NCBI GenBank assembly: GCA_036382875.1
Contig: DASVPJ010000041.1
Coordinates: 2,505-66,504, forward strand
Direction: 5' to 3'
Origin: Mycobacteriales bacterium
GTDB taxonomy: Bacteria > Actinomycetota > Actinomycetes > BP-191
DNA length: 64,000 nt
Within the stretch, counting starts at the first letter, position 1, and every line of letters begins with the position of its first letter. The notes below the pieces were generated by a model that saw only the letters and a list, made by a program, of their open reading frames with translations, made no database searches and was not told the DNA's origin. Positions 19,767 through 29,099 of the stretch are shown piece after piece. The position numbers and the translations under genes are program-made.

Positions 19767-19851
19767 GCGGAGAGGGACAGGCCCGAGCGGGAAGCCCAGG
19801 TCAGACGGGTGCGCCGCCAGGGACTTGAACCCCGAACCCGCGGATTAAGAG
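19767..19851. repeat. attL: 85-bp direct repeat of tRNA-Lys 3' half plus 3' flank
   Basis: Near-identical (2 differences) to 28985..29070, which overlaps the intact tRNA-Lys; covers anticodon loop to acceptor 3' end plus about 35 bp. Confidence 0.7.
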
Positions 19852-20158
19852 GCAGGGCTACTACGTCCGAGGCAGTCCGGGGTAGTTGGTGACACCCCGC
19901 CTGACCTGCGACTTTGCGGAAGGCCGTGTCGTCGCAGTTCGGCACATCCGGGCTTGTCCGGCACCGCTTGTTATCGCAGTGTTAGCGCACTCATCGCGAT
20001 CGCGGGCGGCGCGGCCCGGGTCGCCCAACCGCGCCACAGGTCGTCGCGGCGCCGCGTGCGTAGGGTGTGCCCTTGAGGGTGAGCGGGTGGCGCATCAACG
20101 CGTATCATGCGATGACGAGGTGGCTTCTCGTTACGGGTAGTGCGATCGGGGGCAAGCC

Positions 20159-20533
20159 TTGTTCAGAAAAAAGAGCCGCGCTCGTGAGGCGTCGGGCGAG
20201 TCTTTACGAACCATTGAAAAGCTTAACCCACTGTACTATGAGCGGGTACAGGGCCGGCTTCGTCTTTGGGACGCGCCGGATGCGTCCATCGAGAACGCTG
20301 CGACGAGCACGGCGAACGCGATCTTCAACGTGGCGATGAATTACTTTGGCCGACTCGGTGACGACCGCGCCGGGCGAGCCTTCGCTCTACAGTTCGAAAA
20401 ACGTGTCGCGGGCGACCTGACCGTCGCGGACAAGATGATCGATCAACTCATCTCGTACGACGCTGACACTCAGGAGTTTCTTACGACTCTGCTCCAGCGC
20501 TTGGAGGATCTCGCAGGTCGCCCGCCCACCTAG
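20159..20533 (+). CDS. Hypothetical protein (island cargo)
   Basis: TTG start; mixed AT-ending codons typical of the island; 124 aa; no recognised domain. Confidence 0.4.
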   Translation: MFRKKSRAREASGESLRTIEKLNPLYYERVQGRLRLWDAPDASIENAATSTANAIFNVAMNYFGRLGDDRAGRAFALQFEKRVAGDLTVADKMIDQLISYDADTQEFLTTLLQRLEDLAGRPPT

Positions 20534-20878
20534 ATCGCACGCTGTTCTCGTGCTCCGTTGAATACCAACCTGAGCGAACGTGCCCGCGGCGAGCTCGGTG
20601 TCGATGCGGCATTAAACGCCAGCGCCTCGGCGGATCGTCTCACCGGCCTGCGGCTGAACGTCCTGCCGCTCGCGTCGCGCCAGTCGTACAGGTAGCCGCG
20701 GCCGCGCGGCGGATGCGAGGCTGGAGAGCGCGGGGTCGTGCCATCGACGGGTCGTCTCGTCGTCGGGCGACGACGTGAAGATGAGGATGCGGCGCACCCG
20801 CCGCAGGTCCGGCCGGGTTGCCAGCAATCCGCCACATCCGGCCTCAACGCGATGTTGAACGCCCCGCTCCGGGGAGCA

Positions 20879-20996
20879 AGCCGCAGGTCAGACGGGTGCG
20901 CCGCCAGGGACTTGAACCCTGGATCCGCGGACTTAAAGGCAGGGCAACTTCCGAGGCAGTCCGGGGCAGTTGGTGACAACCGCCTGACCTGCGGTT
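20879..20996. repeat. Degenerate internal copy of the att/tRNA-3' repeat plus conserved island-internal flank
   Basis: Shares caggtcagacgggtgcgccgccagggacttgaaccc with the att repeats and, after a diverged stretch, gcagggc...gaggcagtccgggg.agttggtgaca..cgcctgacctgcg with the island side of attL (19852..19910). Confidence 0.5.
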
Positions 20997-21481
20997 TGCC
21001 CCGTCGGATGTCGCCGTATAGCACGAACTCCGGATACGTCTGTTGGCCATGCTAGCGCTGCTAGCACGCGAGGACGTGGTGCCGACCAGTCGACTCATCA
21101 GGGCGGCGCCTCAGCAACTGCCTCGACCGCCGACGAAGACGCACCTCTGGCGTGCCGGCCCGTTCAGTCGTCCCGCCGACCCGCGCCCCAGGTCAGTCAA
21201 TCTACGATCTTGAGGCTGCTGAAGCGCATCATGTACAACGGTCGCTGTCTTCGTCGTTTGCCGCTCCTGCTCAAGGGCGCTGCGTCGATGCCGCGACGCC
21301 GAGAGGACGGATCCCTCACCGCCCACGGTCTCGACGTCGCGTGTACCACTGACGACGCCTCCCACGCCGAGGGGGCTTACCGCCCTCGCCCTCCGCATGG
21401 ACCTGGGACGAGGCGATCAACGGACTGACAATGAAGTCGGAACATTCCGAGCATTGAGCCTGACTGAAGTAGGCTCGGGCC

Positions 21482-22588
21482 ATGGCACTTCGTCCTACCA
21501 TCTTCATCGGATCCTCTGCGGAGGGAGAGCTCCTGGCGAACCAGCTTCAACTCAACCTCAGCAGGACGTGTCGACCTGATGTCTGGAGCCAGGGAGTCGT
21601 TCGCGTCGGCTCGGCAACACTGCAAAGTCTCGTAGACGCAAGTCATCGGTACGACTTTGCTGCCCTCCTTCTTACACCGGACGACGTTATAGAACAGCAT
21701 GGCGAAACTGGATTCGCTCCGCGTGACAATGTGATCTTTGAAGCCGGTCTGTTTGTCGGTGCGCTGGGCCCGGGCCGCACGTTCTTGGTGCATTGCCGTG
21801 AAGATGTGCTCAACCTCCCATCTGATCTCCTCGGAGTCACCATGGCCACGTATGACCGGCCAAGCCCAGGGGACAACTTGGAAGCGATCATGGGTCCGCC
21901 CGCCACGAAGATCATGAACGCGATTCAGCATGTCGAGTCAACAGGAGTTGGCCCGAACTACCTGACTGCCTTCAGTGCGTTGGCGCGCGAAGTCCCAAGG
22001 GATGAGCTAGTCAGGATCATCACCGAAGCTAGCGCGCCCAGTGATATGCGCTCGCCGCTTAGTCCCGTAGCCTTGCGGACCTTGGAGCGAGAACTTGAGT
22101 CCAGGGGCCACAGTCGGGATCGCGAGCTTACCCGCGACGATCTGCGGCCAGAGATCCGTAAATATAATGATATTCGAGAGACGACGATTCCGGGTGTTAG
22201 CCGAACGAACAGGCTGGAGGAAACCCTCGGAGAGATAGAGTATAAAGCCCTACGCCAGAAATATCCGGCAAGTCTCACCGCGGAACTACTGGACGGCGCC
22301 GATGGGGACAGAGTGGCAGGCCTCGTTCTAGCTCGCGTAAGGCCCGACAAAGAGAACTTCGACGCAGTGTTGCGCATAATAGAGACGCCTCGGTCGAACT
22401 ATGAGCATGCCAAGGCCATTGAGACAATGATACAGATGAAGAAGTCAGACAAACTCACAGATGACCAGGTGCGGGCTGCCCGACGCGTTGCTGAAGAATT
22501 GCTCGACAAGCGTGTGACGCTAATAGTGGACGGCGACCCCAGCCGGGTTGTGTTGGTCGAAACACTTGCGAGAGAGCTCAATCGGTGA
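21482..22588 (+). CDS. TIR-like (PF10137/COG4271-type) nucleotide-binding domain protein with uncharacterised helical C-terminal domain
   Basis: N-terminal signature (TIFIGSSAEG...DFAALLLTPDDVIEQHG...RDNVIFEAGLFVGALGPGRTFLV...LPSDLLGV); AT-ending codons; C-terminal 230 aa with no recognised motif. Confidence 0.7.
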   Translation: MALRPTIFIGSSAEGELLANQLQLNLSRTCRPDVWSQGVVRVGSATLQSLVDASHRYDFAALLLTPDDVIEQHGETGFAPRDNVIFEAGLFVGALGPGRTFLVHCREDVLNLPSDLLGVTMATYDRPSPGDNLEAIMGPPATKIMNAIQHVESTGVGPNYLTAFSALAREVPRDELVRIITEASAPSDMRSPLSPVALRTLERELESRGHSRDRELTRDDLRPEIRKYNDIRETTIPGVSRTNRLEETLGEIEYKALRQKYPASLTAELLDGADGDRVAGLVLARVRPDKENFDAVLRIIETPRSNYEHAKAIETMIQMKKSDKLTDDQVRAARRVAEELLDKRVTLIVDGDPSRVVLVETLARELNR

Positions 22589-22778
22589 GAGCGCCGCGGC
22601 GCCGCTCTGCGACAATCGGAACGAGCGTGCCGCCACGATGCAATCAGGGCGCGCCCATCGGTGCTGTACCTAGCGAGTTCATGCAGGCCGGTTGGTTGCC
22701 CGGAAGATGTCGGTACTGTGGCTGAAAGCGGACGACACACTCGAACGCGCGGACCCTCACCCCGGGTCCGGATGACTC

Positions 22779-23843
22779 TCAGCGGCTAGCAGCTAGCCGG
22801 TCACGCATCTCACGTGCGGCCGTCTTCCAGTCCTGCTCCGCCGACACGCTGAGGCACCGATCGAGGAGCCGCCGGGCGACATCGTTGAGCTCGGCCTCAC
22901 GAATCGCTTCCTCGACAGCGATGAGCGCCATGGCAAGCCGACGTCGCGTGCCCTCCTCGGCGAGCGTCAGATGCTCGAACGCGCGAACGGCGCCGGCGCG
23001 GTCGAGCTGGACCAACGCTGGCACGAGCCTTCGTGGGATGCCCACGTCATCGGCATTATTGGCGACCTCGACGGCGCGGATCAGGAACTCGTCCCCGACG
23101 GGTGCGCGTACCAACCGGGGCAACGTGTCGAACGCAAGCCGTTGAACACCTTGCTCTGATGATTCGAGCAGCGCAAAGACGTCGTCCTCGTCTAACCCGC
23201 CCCGATCGGCGAGCAGCCGGATCGCGCGCTTGCGCGGCCCCTTGTCCTCAAGCTCGTCGGTCGCCAGCTCGACCAGTCGCTGGACGTCGGATGCCGACAG
23301 TTTGTCGGCATCGGCGACGGTGAGACGCAGCGCCGTTCGCACGTTGCGCTGCTGCACCAGCCGCATGCCGGCCTCGAAGAGGCCGCCGAGCTGCTCGCGG
23401 ATCTTCTGCTCGAAGGTCGCCGGAGTGAATGGTGCGACGGTCAACTGCCAGTCGTACTCGAGGGACCGGAGCACCTGGGTCATTCTACGGTCGCTCGGGT
23501 CGGTCACCCCGTCCAGGCTGCGCAGCTCGTTAAGGATGCGGTATTTCGCGTACGTGGCGTCCAGGCAGAGCACGAGGAACGGCGTGCCCGCTTGCAGCGC
23601 CGTGTCGAGTTCGGTGCGCCAGGTGAGGTCGCCGTAGTCCTCCACGACGACGAAGACGCAGATGTCCGCGTCGAGGACCGACGCACGGGAGTTGGCCTCG
23701 AACCGCGCGCCGACTGCGTTGCTGTACGTGATCGCGCCCTGGAGGTAGGTCATTGGCTGGCCGCCGACGTCACGAACGACCCGTTCGAAGTGTTCGAGTA
23801 CATTGCGCGTGTCCGCTGCGCCGCAGAGCATGATTCGGAGCAT
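22779..23843 (-). CDS. DUF4062-domain protein with C-terminal HEAT/ARM-like repeats
   Basis: ATG 23843 after GGGGG SD; DUF4062-like N-terminus (ADICVFVVVEDYGDLTWRTELDTALQAGTPFLVLCLD); helical repeats in C-terminal half; convergent with the TIR-like gene, with hairpin terminators between. Confidence 0.65.
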   Translation of the reverse strand: MLRIMLCGAADTRNVLEHFERVVRDVGGQPMTYLQGAITYSNAVGARFEANSRASVLDADICVFVVVEDYGDLTWRTELDTALQAGTPFLVLCLDATYAKYRILNELRSLDGVTDPSDRRMTQVLRSLEYDWQLTVAPFTPATFEQKIREQLGGLFEAGMRLVQQRNVRTALRLTVADADKLSASDVQRLVELATDELEDKGPRKRAIRLLADRGGLDEDDVFALLESSEQGVQRLAFDTLPRLVRAPVGDEFLIRAVEVANNADDVGIPRRLVPALVQLDRAGAVRAFEHLTLAEEGTRRRLAMALIAVEEAIREAELNDVARRLLDRCLSVSAEQDWKTAAREMRDRLAASR

Positions 23844-24225
23844 CTGACCCCCAACTGCTTCATCGTCCGAACGCACGTTACCGGCGACCGCGTTGGCGTG
23901 TCAGTGGGAGGATTGGCCCTCAGCCCTCAACCGCGTCGCGCGACGGCGGGTGCTAGCCGCTCGCGCCGACTCCCGCGCGGCCGAGCGACCGGATGCACTT
24001 AACGAGGTATCCCAACAGGCAACAATCGAGACATTGCCCTCTGCGCGGCGCGTACCATTCGGCACCTAGCGGCTGTGCGGCGAGCGCAGTGGCTCCCATA
24101 GTCGGACGGTGCAGAGGGTCCTATTACACCGACCTTGCTGCGGGTTCGCGACTTCGGATGCCGCCGGGCTTGCCTGCGGATCTGATTGCAGCAGGTGACT
24201 CATTAAGCGTCGGGTCGGCATAATG

Positions 24226-24504
24226 TTAGTCGTCGCACGCCTTGCGGATTGCGTCAACGAACGGCAGATCCTCGTCCTTCGTGTCGTCACTCAAAGACTC
24301 GAACGGCCGAATGGCGTCGTGTTCGCGGCCGCTTGACTCCATCCATGCCGCCCATGCGTCATGCACATCGGCGGCAGTTACGGCCGCGCCCTTTGCGCGC
24401 GCGAGTACGGCATACATCAGGAACAGACTTGTTGATTCTGCTGGAATAAGAGCTTCCGGTACTTGTGAGCGGATCTTGTCCGCGAGGTCTGTGATGTAGC
24501 TCAT
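24226..24504 (-). CDS. Small hypothetical protein (92 aa), third gene of TIR operon
   Basis: ATG overlaps stop of upstream membrane-protein gene (ATGA); acidic C-terminus; no recognised domain. Confidence 0.5.
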   Translation of the reverse strand: MSYITDLADKIRSQVPEALIPAESTSLFLMYAVLARAKGAAVTAADVHDAWAAWMESSGREHDAIRPFESLSDDTKDEDLPFVDAIRKACDD

Positions 24505-24998
24505 CGGACAACCAGATACGTTGCCAGCACGAGATAGACTACCCCGAATGCGACCGGCGTCACTTGCTCGATGAAGCCGAGCTCGGCGTAGCGATCGCGC
24601 CACTTGAGCTTGGTCGGAGGGTCGGTGTTCGGCCTCAAGACGACCCACTCGTCCACGAACGGACGCACCGTGAAGTGGTCCTGTTCGATGCGGTTGATCA
24701 CGGTGAACTTCGCTGAATTCAACTTCCGATAACTCCGGAGAAGGAGCCACCAGGCGCCGGCGAGAAGTACTCCAGCAAAGGCTGCAACCACGAGAACGAA
24801 CCGGTCAGGTGCGGCCTGGCCGCCGCTGTCGCTGACCCTTGTGGCAAAGAGCGCAAGACCGGCAACAAGGCCGGTCTGCAAGGTCAGAAAGAAGCTGTTC
24901 GCCGAGGCTCGCCTTGCGGATACCCGATCCGCCATCTCAACCGCAAGCGAGTACAACGCGAGAACTGTGGCCTCGGAACTAGCGGCTGGGACAGTCAT
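24501..24998 (-). CDS. Multi-TM membrane protein (about 165 aa), candidate effector (SLATT-like?) of TIR operon
   Basis: ATG 24998 one nt after TIR gene stop (alternative GTG 25013); TM helices FFLTLQTGLVAGLALFA, FVLVVAAFAGVLLAGAWWLLL, VTPVAFGVVYLVLATYLVV; AT-ending codons. Confidence 0.6.
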   Translation of the reverse strand: MTVPAASSEATVLALYSLAVEMADRVSARRASANSFFLTLQTGLVAGLALFATRVSDSGGQAAPDRFVLVVAAFAGVLLAGAWWLLLRSYRKLNSAKFTVINRIEQDHFTVRPFVDEWVVLRPNTDPPTKLKWRDRYAELGFIEQVTPVAFGVVYLVLATYLVVR

Positions 24999-24999
24999 C

Positions 25000-25419
25000 T
25001 CAGCGCGAGCCACCGATAAGTAGCTTCAGATTGTCCCAGGTCCAGTTATACATCTTGTCGGTTGACTTGGCGGAGGTGGGGCGCGTGCAGGTTCCGGTGG
25101 CCCGCCCACGTAGCAGGAAGTACGACTTGCCTTCCTCCTGGGCAATCGATACTTCAGCGCTGACTCCGGTGGCGGTGTGCGTGTGGTGACCGCACAGCAC
25201 TACAACCTGGTCGACGCCCTTGATCCGTCTCCGCGCGCGCGACCGCCAATCAGGCGACGCTTCTTTGATGGACATGTCAACTACCTCGAATGGCGAATCC
25301 GAGTTCTTTGCCTGGCCAATCAGCAAGGTCTTGAGATCACTGTCGTTGTCATAGTCGAAACTTACAAACACCCGTGTCTTCGCCACGCCTCTCCCCTGTC
25401 TGGTGCTGTACATACCCAT
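25000..25419 (-). CDS. TIR-domain protein, ThsB-like (DUF1863/MTH538 TIR-like)
   Basis: RVFVSFDYDNDSD...VVVLCGHHTHTATGVSAEVSIAQEEGKSYFLL matches ThsB/DUF1863 pattern (vFfSFhy.D...LIG..T..s.WV..EI); AT-ending codons; start ATG 25419 (TTG 25443 also possible). Confidence 0.7.
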   Translation of the reverse strand: MGMYSTRQGRGVAKTRVFVSFDYDNDSDLKTLLIGQAKNSDSPFEVVDMSIKEASPDWRSRARRRIKGVDQVVVLCGHHTHTATGVSAEVSIAQEEGKSYFLLRGRATGTCTRPTSAKSTDKMYNWTWDNLKLLIGGSR

Positions 25420-25884
25420 CGGCCCTGGCGTCCGATCCGGCAACGACTGATGCCATAACCTATCGCACTAGCTTGTACAGATCGTTCGATGTTCGTGCGC
25501 AGCCGGGTGTCGGCTGGGACGAGACGCCGCCGACACTTCAGCGTGAGTGTGAGCGTCGGTGTGCGGGGGCGAGAGCGGCGTGGGCCGCGCGCCTCGCGGG
25601 CAGGCCGTTCTTGCCTGCCCGCTCTTCCTGTCCGTAGGGGCCGTAGAGGCTCCGAGGTCAAGGGCCGCCGGGGGCGGTCGCGGAGCGACGCGCGAAGCGC
25701 GCCCTTGAGCTTGGAGGGGCGGCCCCGCAGGATGCGCGGCCCGGGGCGCTCGACCGGACGTGCCCGGCTTGCGGTGTACTCCTGTGGACAAGGCGGGGCC
25801 GGCGGCGAGTTCTCCACAGATTCCGTTCGGCCTCTTGCGGGCGCTTCGGCGGTCAGGTGAACTTCAACGATGGTCCATGATCGC

Positions 25885-26127
25885 TCACTCGATCTGATCG
25901 AGACGTCCCATGAGTTGGCTCGGCTTCACGTCGAGCGCTCGGGCGAGGCGCACGACGATCGCGACGGTCGGGTTGCGGCGGCCGGTCTCGATCTCGGAGA
26001 GGTACGCGACGCTGATCCCGGCGCGCTCGGCGCAGACCGGCTGCGTGAAGCCGCGGCGGTGCCGCAGTTCGCGCACCCACAGGCCGAGCGCTTGGCAGAG
26101 CCGCTCGTCCAGATCGTCGGCTGGCAT
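25885..26127 (-). CDS. XRE-family (Cro/CI-type) HTH transcriptional regulator
   Basis: HTH pattern LRHRRGFTQPVCAERAGISVAYLSEIETGRRNPTVAIVVRLARAL; divergent from phage-like genes at 26192. Confidence 0.7.
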   Translation of the reverse strand: MPADDLDERLCQALGLWVRELRHRRGFTQPVCAERAGISVAYLSEIETGRRNPTVAIVVRLARALDVKPSQLMGRLDQIE

Positions 26128-26191
26128 GGACCCGCATCGTACGGACGCGCCGCACTTCGCGGCGGTCCACCCACGACCACGGGAGGACGGC

Positions 26192-26530
26192 ATGACGCAG
26201 ACCATCGTTGACGAGATCGACCGCACGTTCCTGCTGCTGCGCGTTGCGGCAGCCCGCGACGACGGCGCGGACGAGGCGACGGGGACGCGCTGGTGCGCGC
26301 ACGTGTGCGACCCGGCGAGCCCGCTCGCGGGTCTCTACGCCTTCGCGGACACCCTCGCCGAGGCGCGGGACGCGGTGACGGTCCTGGCGTGGACGGCGGT
26401 ACTCGCGGGCGAGCTGCTGCCGTTCGGCTACACCGCCGACGACCTGGCAGGCATCCACGTCGCGGTGACGACGACCACCCCGTACGACGCCGCCTGGCTC
26501 AACGCCGCAGTCGCGAACGACGCGGCGTAG
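26192..26530 (+). CDS. Hypothetical island protein
   Basis: ATG after GGGAGGACGG SD; GC3-rich; 112 aa, no recognised domain. Confidence 0.5.
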   Translation: MTQTIVDEIDRTFLLLRVAAARDDGADEATGTRWCAHVCDPASPLAGLYAFADTLAEARDAVTVLAWTAVLAGELLPFGYTADDLAGIHVAVTTTTPYDAAWLNAAVANDAA

Positions 26531-26542
26531 GTAGGAGGCGCC

Positions 26543-27028
26543 ATGACGACACAGATCGACGGCTGCCGGCCGCACCTGACCAGCGACCGCGCGGACGAGT
26601 CGTACTCCTCCTGGGTCGGTCGGGCGCGGTGCGCCGGGTGGTCGGACGTGTTCGGCGACGAGAGCAGCAACGACGAGGCGCTGGCGCTCTGCGGGGCGTG
26701 CCCGGTGCTGCGGCAGTGCCGCCGATGGGCGCTGCGCACCGCGGTGGACGGCGTGGCCGGCGGCATGACGTCCGCGGAGCGCGCGGCGTGGCGGCGCGAG
26801 CACGGCGAGCCGGAGCCGGTCGTGAGCGTCGAGGACTTCCTGCTGACCGAGGTGGTCAGCGCCGACCGGACGTGGGGCCGTGGCCGCTCCGAGGCGATCC
26901 TCAACGCGGTAGCACGCTGGACCGACGACGGACACACCGCTCGCGAGATCGGCCTCCGGCTCGGCGTCACCCGACGCACCGTGAACAGGCTCCGCGCTAC
27001 CTGCCGCGAATGCCGACTCATCGCCTGA
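26543..27028 (+). CDS. WhiB-like (Wbl) Fe-S transcription factor with extra C-terminal HTH
   Basis: Cys motif C...C..C....C (CAGW...CGACPVLRQCRRWAL), GVAGGMTSAER turn; C-terminal AREIGLRLGVTRRTVNRL; typical of actinophage/AICE regulators. Confidence 0.75.
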   Translation: MTTQIDGCRPHLTSDRADESYSSWVGRARCAGWSDVFGDESSNDEALALCGACPVLRQCRRWALRTAVDGVAGGMTSAERAAWRREHGEPEPVVSVEDFLLTEVVSADRTWGRGRSEAILNAVARWTDDGHTAREIGLRLGVTRRTVNRLRATCRECRLIA

Positions 27029-27130
27029 CCCGACCCCGTTCCTCGACCTCTGCTGTTCTCCCGACCCCTTCGTCTCTTCTTCTTCGCTTCTCTCCTGATG
27101 TTGTTGATCTTGTTGCTGACCTGATCCGCT

Positions 27131-27338
27131 CCACCCCGCTGACCTGCCCTCCCTTCTCCAATGTGCGTGTCGAGGGAGTGCCACATGTTCGGGGGTGCGA
27201 AGCAGCCCCGAACATGTGGCACGACCGACCCCCGGCGGAGTGCAAAACCGCAGGTCAGCGGGGTGGAGCGGCCTCCGAAAAAGATCTTCGAGGGTGGTTC
27301 CTCGGGTGGTGCCTCGGTGCGTGGACCGAGGCACCACC
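27131..27338. promoter_or_regulatory. Cluster of strong nested palindromes upstream of xis-int (candidate regulatory/recombination-accessory region)
   Basis: 17-bp inverted repeat ccaccccgctgacctgc (27131-27147) and gcaggtcagcggggtgg (27250-27266) enclosing a perfect 17-bp stem hairpin (27178-27222); a further 14-bp stem hairpin at 27305-27338; contains CTGACCTG also present in att core and att-adjacent arms. Confidence 0.5.
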
Positions 27339-27475
27339 CTGAGCGGGTCCCCGGTTACGAGAACTTCACGGAGATCTCACCGCCGTGGTAACTCGGCCGT
27401 GAACCTTTCGTGAAGTCCCGAGCCGACCGTCCCCCCACGTCCCGGTAGCCCGGGACGGGCGAGAGGAGAGCCACC

Positions 27476-27745
27476 ATGAGCGCCATCGACCCGGCGTCGT
27501 TGCCGCCCGTTCTCGACGTCCCCACGGCCGGCCGGCTGCTCGGACTCGGCCGCTCCGCGGCCTACGACCTCGCCGTCGCCGAGCTCTGGCCGACGCCGGT
27601 CCTGCGGCTCGGACGGCGGCTGCGGATCCCGACCGCTCCGTTGCTGGCGCTTCTCGGCCTCGACCCTGGTCCGCTGTCGCAGTCCGGTGGCATGGTGACC
27701 GGGTCACCAACTGCCCCGGCTGCCTCCGAAGGAGGCAGGCCATGA
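27476..27745 (+). CDS. xis: Excisionase/Xis-family HTH DNA-binding protein
   Basis: GAGAGGAGAG SD; MerR/AlpA-like HTH (LDVPTAGRLLGLGRSAAYDLAVAELWPTPVLRLGRRLRIP); stop overlaps integrase ATG (ATGA). Confidence 0.7.
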   Translation: MSAIDPASLPPVLDVPTAGRLLGLGRSAAYDLAVAELWPTPVLRLGRRLRIPTAPLLALLGLDPGPLSQSGGMVTGSPTAPAASEGGRP

Positions 27746-28974
27746 CGAAAGAGTCGGGCGTGTACCAGCGGCACTCACGGCGCTGCCCGCGCAACGCGGG
27801 CGGTCGTGGCTACGCGCCGCACCGGTGCACCGGCACGTGGTCCTACGTCATCGACGTGGGCCGGGACGCCAACAACGAGAGAAGGCAGGAGACGAAGGGA
27901 GGCTTTCCGACCAAGCGGGAAGCGGTCGAGCAGCGGCGCAAGCGTCTCGGCGAGCTGAGGTCGCGGACGGGCGAGGCGTACGGGACGACGGTCGGCGCGT
28001 ACCTGGAGCAGTGGCTGTCGTGGAAGCGCGGCCTGCGGGACAGCACCCGGCTGTCCTACCGGCAGCACCTGGACGACTACCTGGTCCCGGCGCTTGGGCA
28101 GTACCGGCTCGCCGACCTGGAACGTCGGCCGGAGCTGATCGAGCAGATGTTCTCCAACCTCGTCACCGGGGTCAGCGGCAAGCCGTTGTCGCCGGCGTCG
28201 GTGCGGCGCATCTACTCGACGCTGCGCAGCGCGCTCAACAGCGCGGTGAAGCGGCGGATGCTGGCGCACAACCCGGCGTTGCACGTCGAGCTGCCGCGGA
28301 CGGCGCTGTACCGGCCGGTCGTGTGGGACGCGCAGCAGGTCGGCATCTTCCTCGACGCGATCCAGGGCCACCGGCTCTACGCGCTCTACGGCGTCGTCGT
28401 CCTGACCGGACTCCGGCGCGGCGAGGCGCTCGGGCTCCGGTGGGAGGACGTGGACCTGGACGAGGGCGTGCTGCACGTACGCCAGCAGGTCGTCGCGGTC
28501 GGCACGGAGGTCCGCATCGGCCCGCCGAAGACGAAGGCGGGGGAGCGGACGGTCGCGCTGTCCGAGGCGACCGTGGCGATGCTGCGCGAGCACCAGGCGC
28601 GGCAACGGCGCGAACGGCTCGCGTGGGGCGAGGCGTGGCACGACAGCGGCCACGTGTTCACCTACGAGGACGGCCGGATGCTGCGGCCGGACCACGTGAC
28701 GCACCTGTTCCGCAGGCTGGCGAAGGAGGCGGGGCTGCCGCTGATCCGGCTGCACAACCTGCGGCACACCAGCGCGAGCCTCGCGCTGGCGGCGGGCGTC
28801 CCGATGAAGGTCGTCAGCGACCGGCTCGGCCACTCCAGCGAGTCGATCACCTCGGCGCTCTACACGGTCGTCGTGCCCGCTGTGGCACGCGAGGCGGCCG
28901 AGCGGATCGCCAACGTCGTGCTGCTGCCGAGGGCACGGAGCGACGAGCACGAAGCCGTGTTAGCGCGGCGTTAG
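27742..28974 (+). CDS. int: Tyrosine-type site-specific integrase
   Basis: C-terminal catalytic region (LRRGEALGLRWEDVD, HNLRHTSASLALAAGVPMKVVSDRLGHSSESITSALY); adjacent to tRNA-Lys and attR. Confidence 0.9.
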   Translation: MTKESGVYQRHSRRCPRNAGGRGYAPHRCTGTWSYVIDVGRDANNERRQETKGGFPTKREAVEQRRKRLGELRSRTGEAYGTTVGAYLEQWLSWKRGLRDSTRLSYRQHLDDYLVPALGQYRLADLERRPELIEQMFSNLVTGVSGKPLSPASVRRIYSTLRSALNSAVKRRMLAHNPALHVELPRTALYRPVVWDAQQVGIFLDAIQGHRLYALYGVVVLTGLRRGEALGLRWEDVDLDEGVLHVRQQVVAVGTEVRIGPPKTKAGERTVALSEATVAMLREHQARQRRERLAWGEAWHDSGHVFTYEDGRMLRPDHVTHLFRRLAKEAGLPLIRLHNLRHTSASLALAAGVPMKVVSDRLGHSSESITSALYTVVVPAVAREAAERIANVVLLPRARSDEHEAVLARR

Positions 28975-28984
28975 CGCATGACCG

Positions 28985-29070
28985 GGAGAGGGCCAGGCCC
29001 GAGCGGGAAAGCCCAGGTCAGACGGGTGCGCCGCCAGGGACTTGAACCCCGAACCCGCGGATTAAGAGTC
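28985..29070. repeat. attR: direct repeat overlapping 3' half of tRNA-Lys
   Basis: Partner of 19767..19851. Confidence 0.7.
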
Positions 29071-29099
29071 CGCTGCTCTGCCAATTGAGCTAGCGGCGC
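29027..29099 (-). tRNA. tRNA-Lys (anticodon CTT), CCA not encoded
   Basis: Minus-strand cloverleaf GCGCCGC-TA-GCTC-AATTGGCA-GAGC-A-GCGGA-CTCTTAA-TCCGC-GGGTT-CGGGG-TTCAAGT-CCCTG-GCGGCGC-A; 73 nt. Confidence 0.85.

Follow-up and report, generated by a model that had tools for sequence, protein, structure and literature searches.

A putative Vulcan-type TIR-like and HEAT-repeat protein encoded on a tRNA-Lys integrative island of a Mycobacteriales bacterium

What is the role of a protein that joins an enzyme-like domain to helical repeats and whose gene is flanked by two TIR-type genes on a mobile island? The question is raised by a gene on the minus strand (22779..23843) of a 64,000-nucleotide stretch of a Mycobacteriales genome (contig DASVPJ010000041.1 of assembly GCA_036382875.1), the whole of which is referred to here as the window. 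The 354-aa product of this target gene, delimited from the list of open reading frames (ORFs) and by its homologues, is a two-domain protein in which an N-terminal domain of the TIR/NDT superfamily with an invariant glutamate (E78) is followed by a long helix and a HEAT-like solenoid, and the gene lies on a mobile island. By analogy with recently described defence systems, it is proposed with moderate confidence that the target is an autonomous Vulcan-type sensor-effector, in which a HEAT sensor would control a TIR-like NADase to give an abortive-infection anti-phage protein. The stop codon lies at 22779-22781. A GTG start at 23876 is possible for the minus-strand ORF ending at 22779, but the 354-aa protein beginning with the ATG at 23843 was chosen because all 31 full-length homologues (37-52% identity) begin at that position (MLRIMLCGA...). 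The two peptides quoted in a preliminary description of the locus were found in the protein at residues 59-72 (ADICVFVVVEDYGD) and 77-92 (TELDTALQAGTPFLVL).

The N-terminal domain (23424..23843, minus strand; residues 1-140) is TIR/NDT-like, more specifically DUF4062/NIR-like, and comprises five beta-alpha units both in the AlphaFold2 model of the target built on the family alignment (pLDDT 89.9) and in a concordant model of the N-domain only (pLDDT 86.3, pTM 0.80). A TIR-like fold is indicated by this secondary structure of five beta-alpha units (pLDDT 86-90) and by Foldseek matches. The domains are linked by a long helix (23313..23423, minus strand; residues 141-177 in the full model, 144-175 in the N-domain-only model), which, judging from the models, is a possible stalk or oligomerisation element. 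The remainder of the protein (22782..23312, minus strand; residues 178-354) is a HEAT/ARM-like alpha-solenoid of about 12 helices (residues 184-352, pLDDT 93-98). These form stacked pairs with repeat cores of the (D/E)xxxx(V)Rxx(A)xxxL type, which are visible in the alignment and correspond to DELEDKGPRKRAIRLL, SEQGVQRLAFDTL, ADDVGIPRRLVPAL and EEGTRRRLAMAL in the target. When the C-terminal domain was compared with the PDB using Foldseek, alphaRep, CpcE/F and TON_1937 HEAT proteins were matched with a probability of 1.0 but with E-values above 7e-3, and the family profile matches eight repeat units of the Arm/HEAT protein P0167. The latter was considered as the TIR-STAND neighbour of the homologue in a Nocardioides locus (L007), but this was rejected as P0167 is an unrelated Arm/HEAT protein.

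Both domain names had been given in the preliminary description, and both were qualified by a scan of all 32 family members against Pfam. HEAT_2 is matched below threshold in nine members (best E-value 3.9e-4, 21.1 bits against a cut-off of 27.7, residues 170-264), while no member reaches the HEAT thresholds of PF13646 or PF02985. The HEAT-like repeats are thus upheld by the modelled solenoid, the Foldseek HEAT proteins and the repeats of P0167, but not by any Pfam HEAT match above threshold. In the N-domain, sub-threshold matches to TIR_2 occur in 12 of the 32 members (best 2.8e-4, residues 38-108; 15-17 bits in the members inspected) and to DUF4062 in ten (13-17 bits, best E-value 2.3e-3, residues 10-73). 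Neither the target nor the scanned family members reach the gathering score of PF13271 (24.7 bits), and the canonical TIR threshold (PF13676 / PF01582, 28 bits) is not reached across the 32 proteins. The assignment to DUF4062 therefore stands in part: the sub-threshold matches and a profile comparison (probability 56%) point to it, but the target itself has no Pfam match to this domain at E<=10.

Foldseek searches of the PDB with the N-domain retrieved the Bacillus cereus TIR protein 8fz9 (6.7e-4), the RRS1/RPS4 and BtpA TIRs, BcmB, DNPH1 and SfSTING-TIR. This spectrum of TIRs, cytidine monophosphate (CMP) N-glycosidase and DNPH1/NDT proteins, obtained with a model, is the same as that reported for a genuine NIR domain (10.64898/2026.09.04.749371). 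Among the viral structures of BFVD, the top match is a full-length 358-aa siphovirus 'deoxyribosyltransferase' (E-value 4.3e-7), after which come TIR, CMP-hydrolase, Cap12-TIR and NDT proteins. Profile searches of PDB sequences with the full-length protein and the N-domain gave only chance-level matches, to G-gamma, L18Ae and the Der GTPase. A Ras-like/TRAFAC GTPase was rejected because the target has no P-loop: the sequence following strand 1, MLCGAADTRNV, lacks the GK[ST] of the Walker A motif (GxxxxGK[ST]), and the matches to Der/EngA (E-values 0.2-0.9) cover residues 52-94 only.

The closest sequence family was sought by aligning 22 genuine PF13271 proteins, with the DUF4062-TPR protein of a homologue locus as the seed. 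When the extended N-domain family was compared with this alignment using hhalign, a probability of 56% and an E-value of 1.1e-4 were obtained over 139 colinear columns spanning the whole domain. In single-sequence controls DUF4062 gave the best of four scores (19.6%), yet one close to that of PF10137 (15.6%), with ThsB_TIR (1.9%) and TIR_2 (0.3%) below. E78, the predicted catalytic glutamate (codon 23610..23612, minus strand, checked by translation), aligns with the invariant glutamate of the SGTEEEF motif of genuine DUF4062 proteins, and also with the corresponding glutamates of the PF10137 (FEAG) and ThsB_TIR (SAEV) domains encoded in the window. On account of the hhalign comparison, the alignment of E78 and the sub-threshold Pfam matches, the N-domain is placed in the TIR/NDT superfamily nearest to DUF4062/NIR, as a distinct sub-family that retains the glutamate at the catalytic position and is overlooked by current models. 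The extended-family member P0177 carries the UniRef name DUF4062 protein.

The family motifs of the N-domain are MLCGAxDT, NS (residues 51-52) and ITWxxE. Only G8, S52, W75 and E78 are invariant across 27 N-domains, fusion proteins included. W75 (codon 23619-23621, minus strand) is located one helical turn before E78, and the residue following E78 is L, F, Y, M, I or V in all 27, which gives a predicted catalytic-glutamate motif at the start of helix C. As these four residues are invariant even across different fusions, they argue for an active site. Such fusions are diverse: elsewhere the N-domain is joined to NUDIX, to a C-terminal TIR_2 domain or to a coiled coil with a transmembrane and Cys-rich domain, while the HEAT domain also follows an unrelated N-terminus (P0151). 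Domain swapping of this kind, as read from the sequences, is typical of conflict-system proteins and effectors. In P0083 (L011 8001-10416) and P0112 the N-domain is followed by a middle domain and a C-terminal NUDIX hydrolase, and in L011 the NUDIX-fusion gene overlaps at its end with a 275-aa radical-SAM gene; the two could form a different, nucleotide-centred system. Ten further proteins (P0089, P0091, P0102, P0103, P0127, P0134, P0135, P0137, P0139 and P0142) combine the N-domain with a coiled coil and with a hydrophobic segment that is probably transmembrane. The end of most of them is formed by a Cys-containing domain, which in P0089 gives a weak SPOR match. From their sequences, these would be membrane-anchored versions of the same enzyme domain.

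The family is small and patchily distributed. When 1.84 billion representatives were searched exhaustively with the family profile, only 191 proteins were obtained at E<=1e-3, and scanning 185,579 species genomes for a pattern built from a 20-sequence subset of the family alignment yielded 27 loci. The named source organisms all belong to the Actinomycetota (Micromonospora, Streptomyces, Actinoplanes, Amycolatopsis, Kribbella, Lentzea, Nocardioides and metagenome-assembled genomes of Acidimicrobiia), and another 16 loci stem from metagenomes, while one more belongs to a viral contig. Mean pairwise identity within the family is 53% in the enzyme core, 44% in the solenoid and 33% in the last 40 residues.

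Three preprints of 2026 establish DUF4062, renamed NIR, as a TIR-like NADase that functions in phage defence (10.64898/2026.05.01.722283, 10.64898/2026.06.25.731849, 10.64898/2026.09.04.749371). In Vulcan, represented by WP_050009967.1 of Enterobacter roggenkampii, a NIR domain at the N-terminus and HEAT repeats at the C-terminus form a single protein (Le Mouellic et al., bioRxiv 10.64898/2026.09.04.749371). Its catalytic glutamate is required, nicotinamide adenine dinucleotide (NAD+) is depleted and the trigger is a small phage protein; NIR-Avs2 and Vesta are described alongside it (10.64898/2026.09.04.749371). Swarozyc is activated by the phage portal, which is bound by KpSwz (10.64898/2026.05.01.722283), while Evangelion is plasmid-borne and enriched on plasmids, and has a short AUX region (10.64898/2026.06.25.731849). 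For NIR genes, the share located near known defence systems is 20%, compared with a background of 3.9%. The mechanism of the target is most likely as in Vulcan, because the two share the same design. On the model of Vulcan, Swarozyc, Evangelion and NIR-Avs2, the enzyme domain would be kept inactive in the uninfected cell, and the HEAT solenoid would bind a phage protein during infection. This binding would drive activation or oligomerisation, possibly via the stalk helix, upon which the enzyme would destroy NAD+ and the infected cell would arrest or die before phage release.

The genomic surroundings of the homologues were compared in ~47 other homologue loci using tblastn and in 11 Pfam-annotated neighbourhoods, the window included. 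Relatives of the target are found both in a prophage and in islands in which TIR, STAND and SLOG genes abound, which supports a defence role. The prophage homologue P0010 (L055 872-3333, IMGVR_UViG_3300047160_011136) starts 51 nt after a serine integrase gene, with a terminase gene 2 kb away; the first gene after a serine integrase is the usual position of prophage-borne defence 'morons'. In Amycolatopsis (L008) a TIR gene and then a ParA-like/TPR gene precede the homologue, which begins 3 nt after the latter; genes for an 8xMP homologue, DUF4062-TPR, nSTAND1, a recombinase and the insertion sequence IS66 are located nearby. A homologue flanked by IS110 and IS1595 (L010) is followed by genes for an alpha/beta-hydrolase, TPR-S with trypsin and LSDAT_prok, while MATCAP and a 1007-aa TIR_2-STAND protein are encoded at the Nocardioides locus, and IS3, DUF87, a subtilase (Peptidase_S8), VWA and Tubulin_2 at another (L056). 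Pairs of ThsB_TIR and caspase (Peptidase_C14) genes also occur beside target homologues (L024 2487-3827 and L040 202-1526).

Most family loci lack a conserved neighbour, and for the prophage copy no partner was recognised. Of the options raised in the preliminary description, that of an independent sensor or effector is the one that fits best, given the general lack of a conserved neighbour, the solitary prophage copy and the precedent of Vulcan as a single protein (10.64898/2026.09.04.749371).

Several observations weigh against the autonomous Vulcan-type sensor-effector. The target protein has no match in Pfam (searched to E<=10), NCBIfam, PADLOC or PHROGs at E<=0.1-10, depending on the library. 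The Foldseek E-values of the N-domain are marginal, GTPases occurring in the same score range, and its link to DUF4062, drawn from sequence profiles, rests on the hhalign probability of 56%. Of the three hallmark motifs published for DUF4062 in the work on Evangelion (10.64898/2026.06.25.731849), two, the phenylalanine of strand beta-A and the Q/W/E motif, were not seen in the N-domain family: Met5 of the target MLCGA occupies the phenylalanine position, and the GWE...RPQ..IN block of the DUF4062 alignment has no counterpart, NS51-52 standing in its place. The repeat cores of the putative sensor are well conserved (44% mean identity) rather than hypervariable. No relatives were detected by tblastn among 72,556 PLSDB plasmids and 50,697 INPHARED phage genomes, and defence or mobile genes are absent from four of the 11 Pfam-annotated neighbourhoods. 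Several Micromonospora loci share one chromosomal neighbourhood around the gene, in which HD_4 is located upstream at a distance of 93 bp to 4.1 kb. Finally, a cassette shared with an 8xMP gene hints at a partner for the target.

This last observation leads to the alternative that fares best, although it is considered unlikely: a two-component system in which the TIR-like-HEAT protein would sense infection and signal to 8xMP, by a nucleotide product or by contact, and 8xMP would harm the membrane. The target would then stand in for the small ThsB-like TIR that is usually encoded ahead of 8xMP. When the ORFs neighbouring the homologues were clustered all against all, the 8xMP membrane protein was the one family common to several genera. 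This sole neighbour recurring across genera, encoded on the other side of the target, was missed in the preliminary description. Within 10 kb of the target or its homologue, 8xMP is encoded in the window, in Micromonospora (L018, where a TIR_2 protein is adjacent), in Amycolatopsis and in four Streptomyces species. In the last (L026 9335-11115; L027, L029 and L036), a 1.76-kb cassette contains only the divergent genes for 8xMP and the target homologue. The cassette DNA is 88-90% identical between species while the flanks are unrelated, so the pair moves as a unit. An integrase gene is located 1.4 kb downstream of one of these cassettes (L029). Elsewhere, a small TIR gene lies immediately upstream of 8xMP in six of nine annotated plasmid contexts from cyanobacteria, proteobacteria, actinobacteria and clostridia, and a weak TIR_2 match precedes 8xMP in Leptolyngbya. 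However, 8xMP is absent from most family loci, including the prophage copy and related Streptomyces loci, 84% identical at the DNA level, in which the target gene is intact and alone. In the window, moreover, a ThsB_TIR of its own is already provided for 8xMP by the operon of overlapping genes. The cassettes of the four Streptomyces species may represent one evolutionary event, and adjacency to 8xMP could reflect the mere clustering of defence genes. The 8xMP system is therefore ranked second, since most family members lack 8xMP and the copy in the window has its own ThsB_TIR.

The operon in question (24226..25443, minus strand) lies 382 nt upstream of the target on the same strand and consists of genes with overlapping ends for ThsB_TIR (25000-25443, minus strand; Pfam E-value 2.4e-8), 8xMP (24501-25013, minus strand; 4.5e-36) and DUF7701 (24226-24504, minus strand; 2.7e-31), all three of which are also present in the JGI gene calls. 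ThsB_TIR with 8xMP, and in part DUF7701, looks like an undescribed TIR-linked membrane-effector system: 8xMP has no PADLOC match, and no description of it or of the TIR-8xMP module was found in PADLOC-DB or in text searches of a paper collection. The small TIR-8xMP module occurs on plasmids of Synechococcus, Polaromonas, Haematospirillum, Paenarthrobacter, Novosphingobium and Clostridium perfringens (L058-L061, L064, L065), the C. perfringens plasmid (L065 1495-3808) encoding a caspase, a TIR, 8xMP and a second TIR in one row. On the Synechococcus elongatus plasmid pIITB6_1 (L058 1908-3459), a separate 183-aa HEAT-repeat gene precedes the TIR and 8xMP genes. A Rosetta-stone link based on these separate HEAT, TIR and 8xMP genes was rejected, the HEAT protein sharing the domain class of the C-terminal half of the target without detectable homology to it (hhalign 0.15%). 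A more far-reaching and rather doubtful proposal is that the domain with the MLCGAxD, NS and TWxxE motifs represents a separate, unnamed TIR/NDT clade. In Streptomyces it would be paired with 8xMP in a mobile two-gene Thoeris-like system, replacing the small ThsB-like TIR, so that a TIR-like enzyme fused to a HEAT sensor activates a membrane effector, while the domain would be re-used with NUDIX, transmembrane/Cys-rich and TIR_2 partners.

The same fold may alternatively support other chemistry, a quite unlikely reading in which the N-domain is a nucleotide N-glycosidase resembling NDT or CMP hydrolase rather than a bulk NADase, and depletes or modifies the nucleotide pool (deoxynucleoside or nucleoside monophosphates, dNMP or NMP) or makes a signalling nucleotide. 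The best target-normalised TM-scores (TMt) of the N-domain in the PDB are to the CMP N-glycosidase BcmB (0.62-0.68) and to DNPH1 (0.57-0.62), and BFVD matches are named deoxyribosyltransferase or CMP hydrolase. The missing DUF4062 phenylalanine and Q/W/E motifs would also agree with this chemistry, and the fusions to NUDIX are indicative of nucleotide chemistry in a general sense, although they also fit ADP-ribose processing. In profile comparison, however, the sequence family that comes nearest is DUF4062, the tested members of which are NADases, and the NIR domain of PsAvs2, first annotated as 'CMP hydrolase', proved to be an NADase (10.64898/2026.09.04.749371).

It is very unlikely that the target has no part in defence and is a chromosomal regulatory or scaffold protein of the Actinomycetota, with a TIR-like domain that binds a ligand without catalysis. 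The shared Micromonospora neighbourhood with HD_4 upstream, the several loci without defence neighbours and the conserved HEAT repeat cores are all in keeping with such a role. HD_4 itself was rejected as a partner, since it is confined to the Micromonospora loci at a variable distance (93 bp to 4.1 kb) that fits shared synteny. Against this reading stand the invariance of E78, W75, S52 and G8 across differing domain fusions, the patchy distribution of the family (27 of 185,579 species genomes), the copies on a prophage, an integrative island and regions flanked by insertion sequences, and the GC content of the island, which is below that of the host.

A partnership with the convergent PF10137 TIR-like gene, the other option raised in the preliminary description, is extremely unlikely: only adjacency in the window across a 190-nt convergent spacer favours it, while a PF10137 relative was detected in none of the ~47 other loci and none of the ten other annotated neighbourhoods, and the convergent orientation excludes co-transcription. 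The PF10137 gene (21482..22588, plus strand) codes for a TIR of the CAP12/Pycsar type (Pfam 1.5e-25; PADLOC TIR effector 4.8e-38), in which no family is matched by the ~240 residues that come after the TIR domain (residues 7-125). It appears to stand alone, with no cyclase nearby and no relatives at the other loci examined. The spacer separating it from the target (22589..22778) contains GC-rich stems, but the two hairpin terminators previously described there could not be confirmed: the folding of the spacer does not surpass that of shuffled versions (z -0.34, -0.02 and +1.6), and a consensus terminator scan requiring a T run after the stem reported zero sites in the 190 nt.

The placement of the target convergent with the PF10137 gene and between two TIR-type genes on a mobile island, PF10137 on one side and ThsB_TIR on the other, was correctly described, and the limits of the island can be given. 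A tRNA-Lys integrative element of ~9.2 kb (19769..29099) is delimited by attachment (att) repeats, an integrase gene, a tRNA gene and a drop in GC content. The tyrosine integrase gene (27742-28974; Pfam match 3.9e-24) abuts tRNA-Lys(CTT) (29025-29099). A direct repeat of ~83 nt (96-98% identity) is formed by an attL-like copy (19769-19851) and attR (28985-29068), the latter lying inside or abutting tRNA-Lys and taking in the 3' half of the tRNA. GC content is 62-64% over 20-26 kb, ~71% at the integrase end and ~75% in the flanks. A degenerate third att copy is located internally (20876-20938). The three copies of the tRNA-Lys 3' att sequence suggest tandem or decayed integrations, in which a ~1.1-kb remnant with only a 124-aa ORF (20159-20533) would lie beside the 8.1-kb element. 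Regulatory and housekeeping genes are located at 25885-27745, including an HTH_31 repressor-like gene and a WhiB domain fused to a helix-turn-helix (HTH) domain (26543-27028). Within the same region, an 89-aa ORF without a Pfam match abuts the integrase gene and possibly codes for an excisionase. No replication or transfer genes were seen among the island genes.

Proteins of this kind were described only months earlier, and what is new here is a branch invisible to annotation models, together with the lead to 8xMP. Should the autonomous Vulcan-type reading hold, the NIR/DUF4062 NADase class and the one-protein Vulcan design would extend to the Actinomycetota. Defence censuses of Streptomyces and its relatives would then be undercounts, the branch being overlooked by Pfam, PADLOC and NCBIfam. 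The 8xMP pairing and the widespread small TIR-8xMP module would also point to a TIR-linked membrane effector module. In that case the family would also offer a sensor-effector that is compact (354 aa) and confidently modelled, and in which one candidate for the catalytic residue stands out.

Thoeris is one of the known systems that come closest to the target. The target shares with ThsB a TIR-superfamily domain with a conserved glutamate and adjoins the ThsB_TIR-8xMP-DUF7701 operon, and small TIRs are paired with 8xMP elsewhere, as the target is in Streptomyces. However, a SLOG or Macro effector of the ThsA type is missing, the target has its own sensor-like HEAT domain, and its comparison with ThsB_TIR reaches only 1.9% in hhalign. 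NIR-Avs2 and the NLR-like proteins with an N-terminal DUF4062 or TIR domain likewise combine an N-terminal TIR-like NADase effector with a C-terminal helical-repeat sensor, but are of ~1000 aa or more, whereas the target, at 354 aa, lacks a STAND NTPase module separating the effector from the repeats. In Swarozyc and Evangelion, one gene on a mobile element codes for a DUF4062/TIR-like NADase core at the N-terminus and an auxiliary region required for sensing at the C-terminus, and the helical stalk that follows the TIR-like domain of KpSwz may be likened to the 37-residue helix of the target. Their auxiliary domains are not HEAT solenoids, and their cores are recognised by PF13271. Vulcan is matched at the level of domain architecture. 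In both, an N-terminal NIR/DUF4062-type domain with a glutamate is fused directly to C-terminal HEAT repeats in one polypeptide found in defence or mobile contexts, and the predicted logic, by analogy, is that the HEAT domain would sense a phage protein and NAD+ depletion would follow. The target differs in that its N-domain falls below the PF13271 threshold and carries MLCGAxDT, NS and TWxxE in place of the phenylalanine and Q/W/E motifs, that its named hosts are all Actinomycetota and that one subclade travels with the 8xMP cassette. The Pfam threshold and the two motifs set it apart, but its fold, glutamate and architecture would place the target as a variant of this known kind of system rather than as a member of Vulcan.

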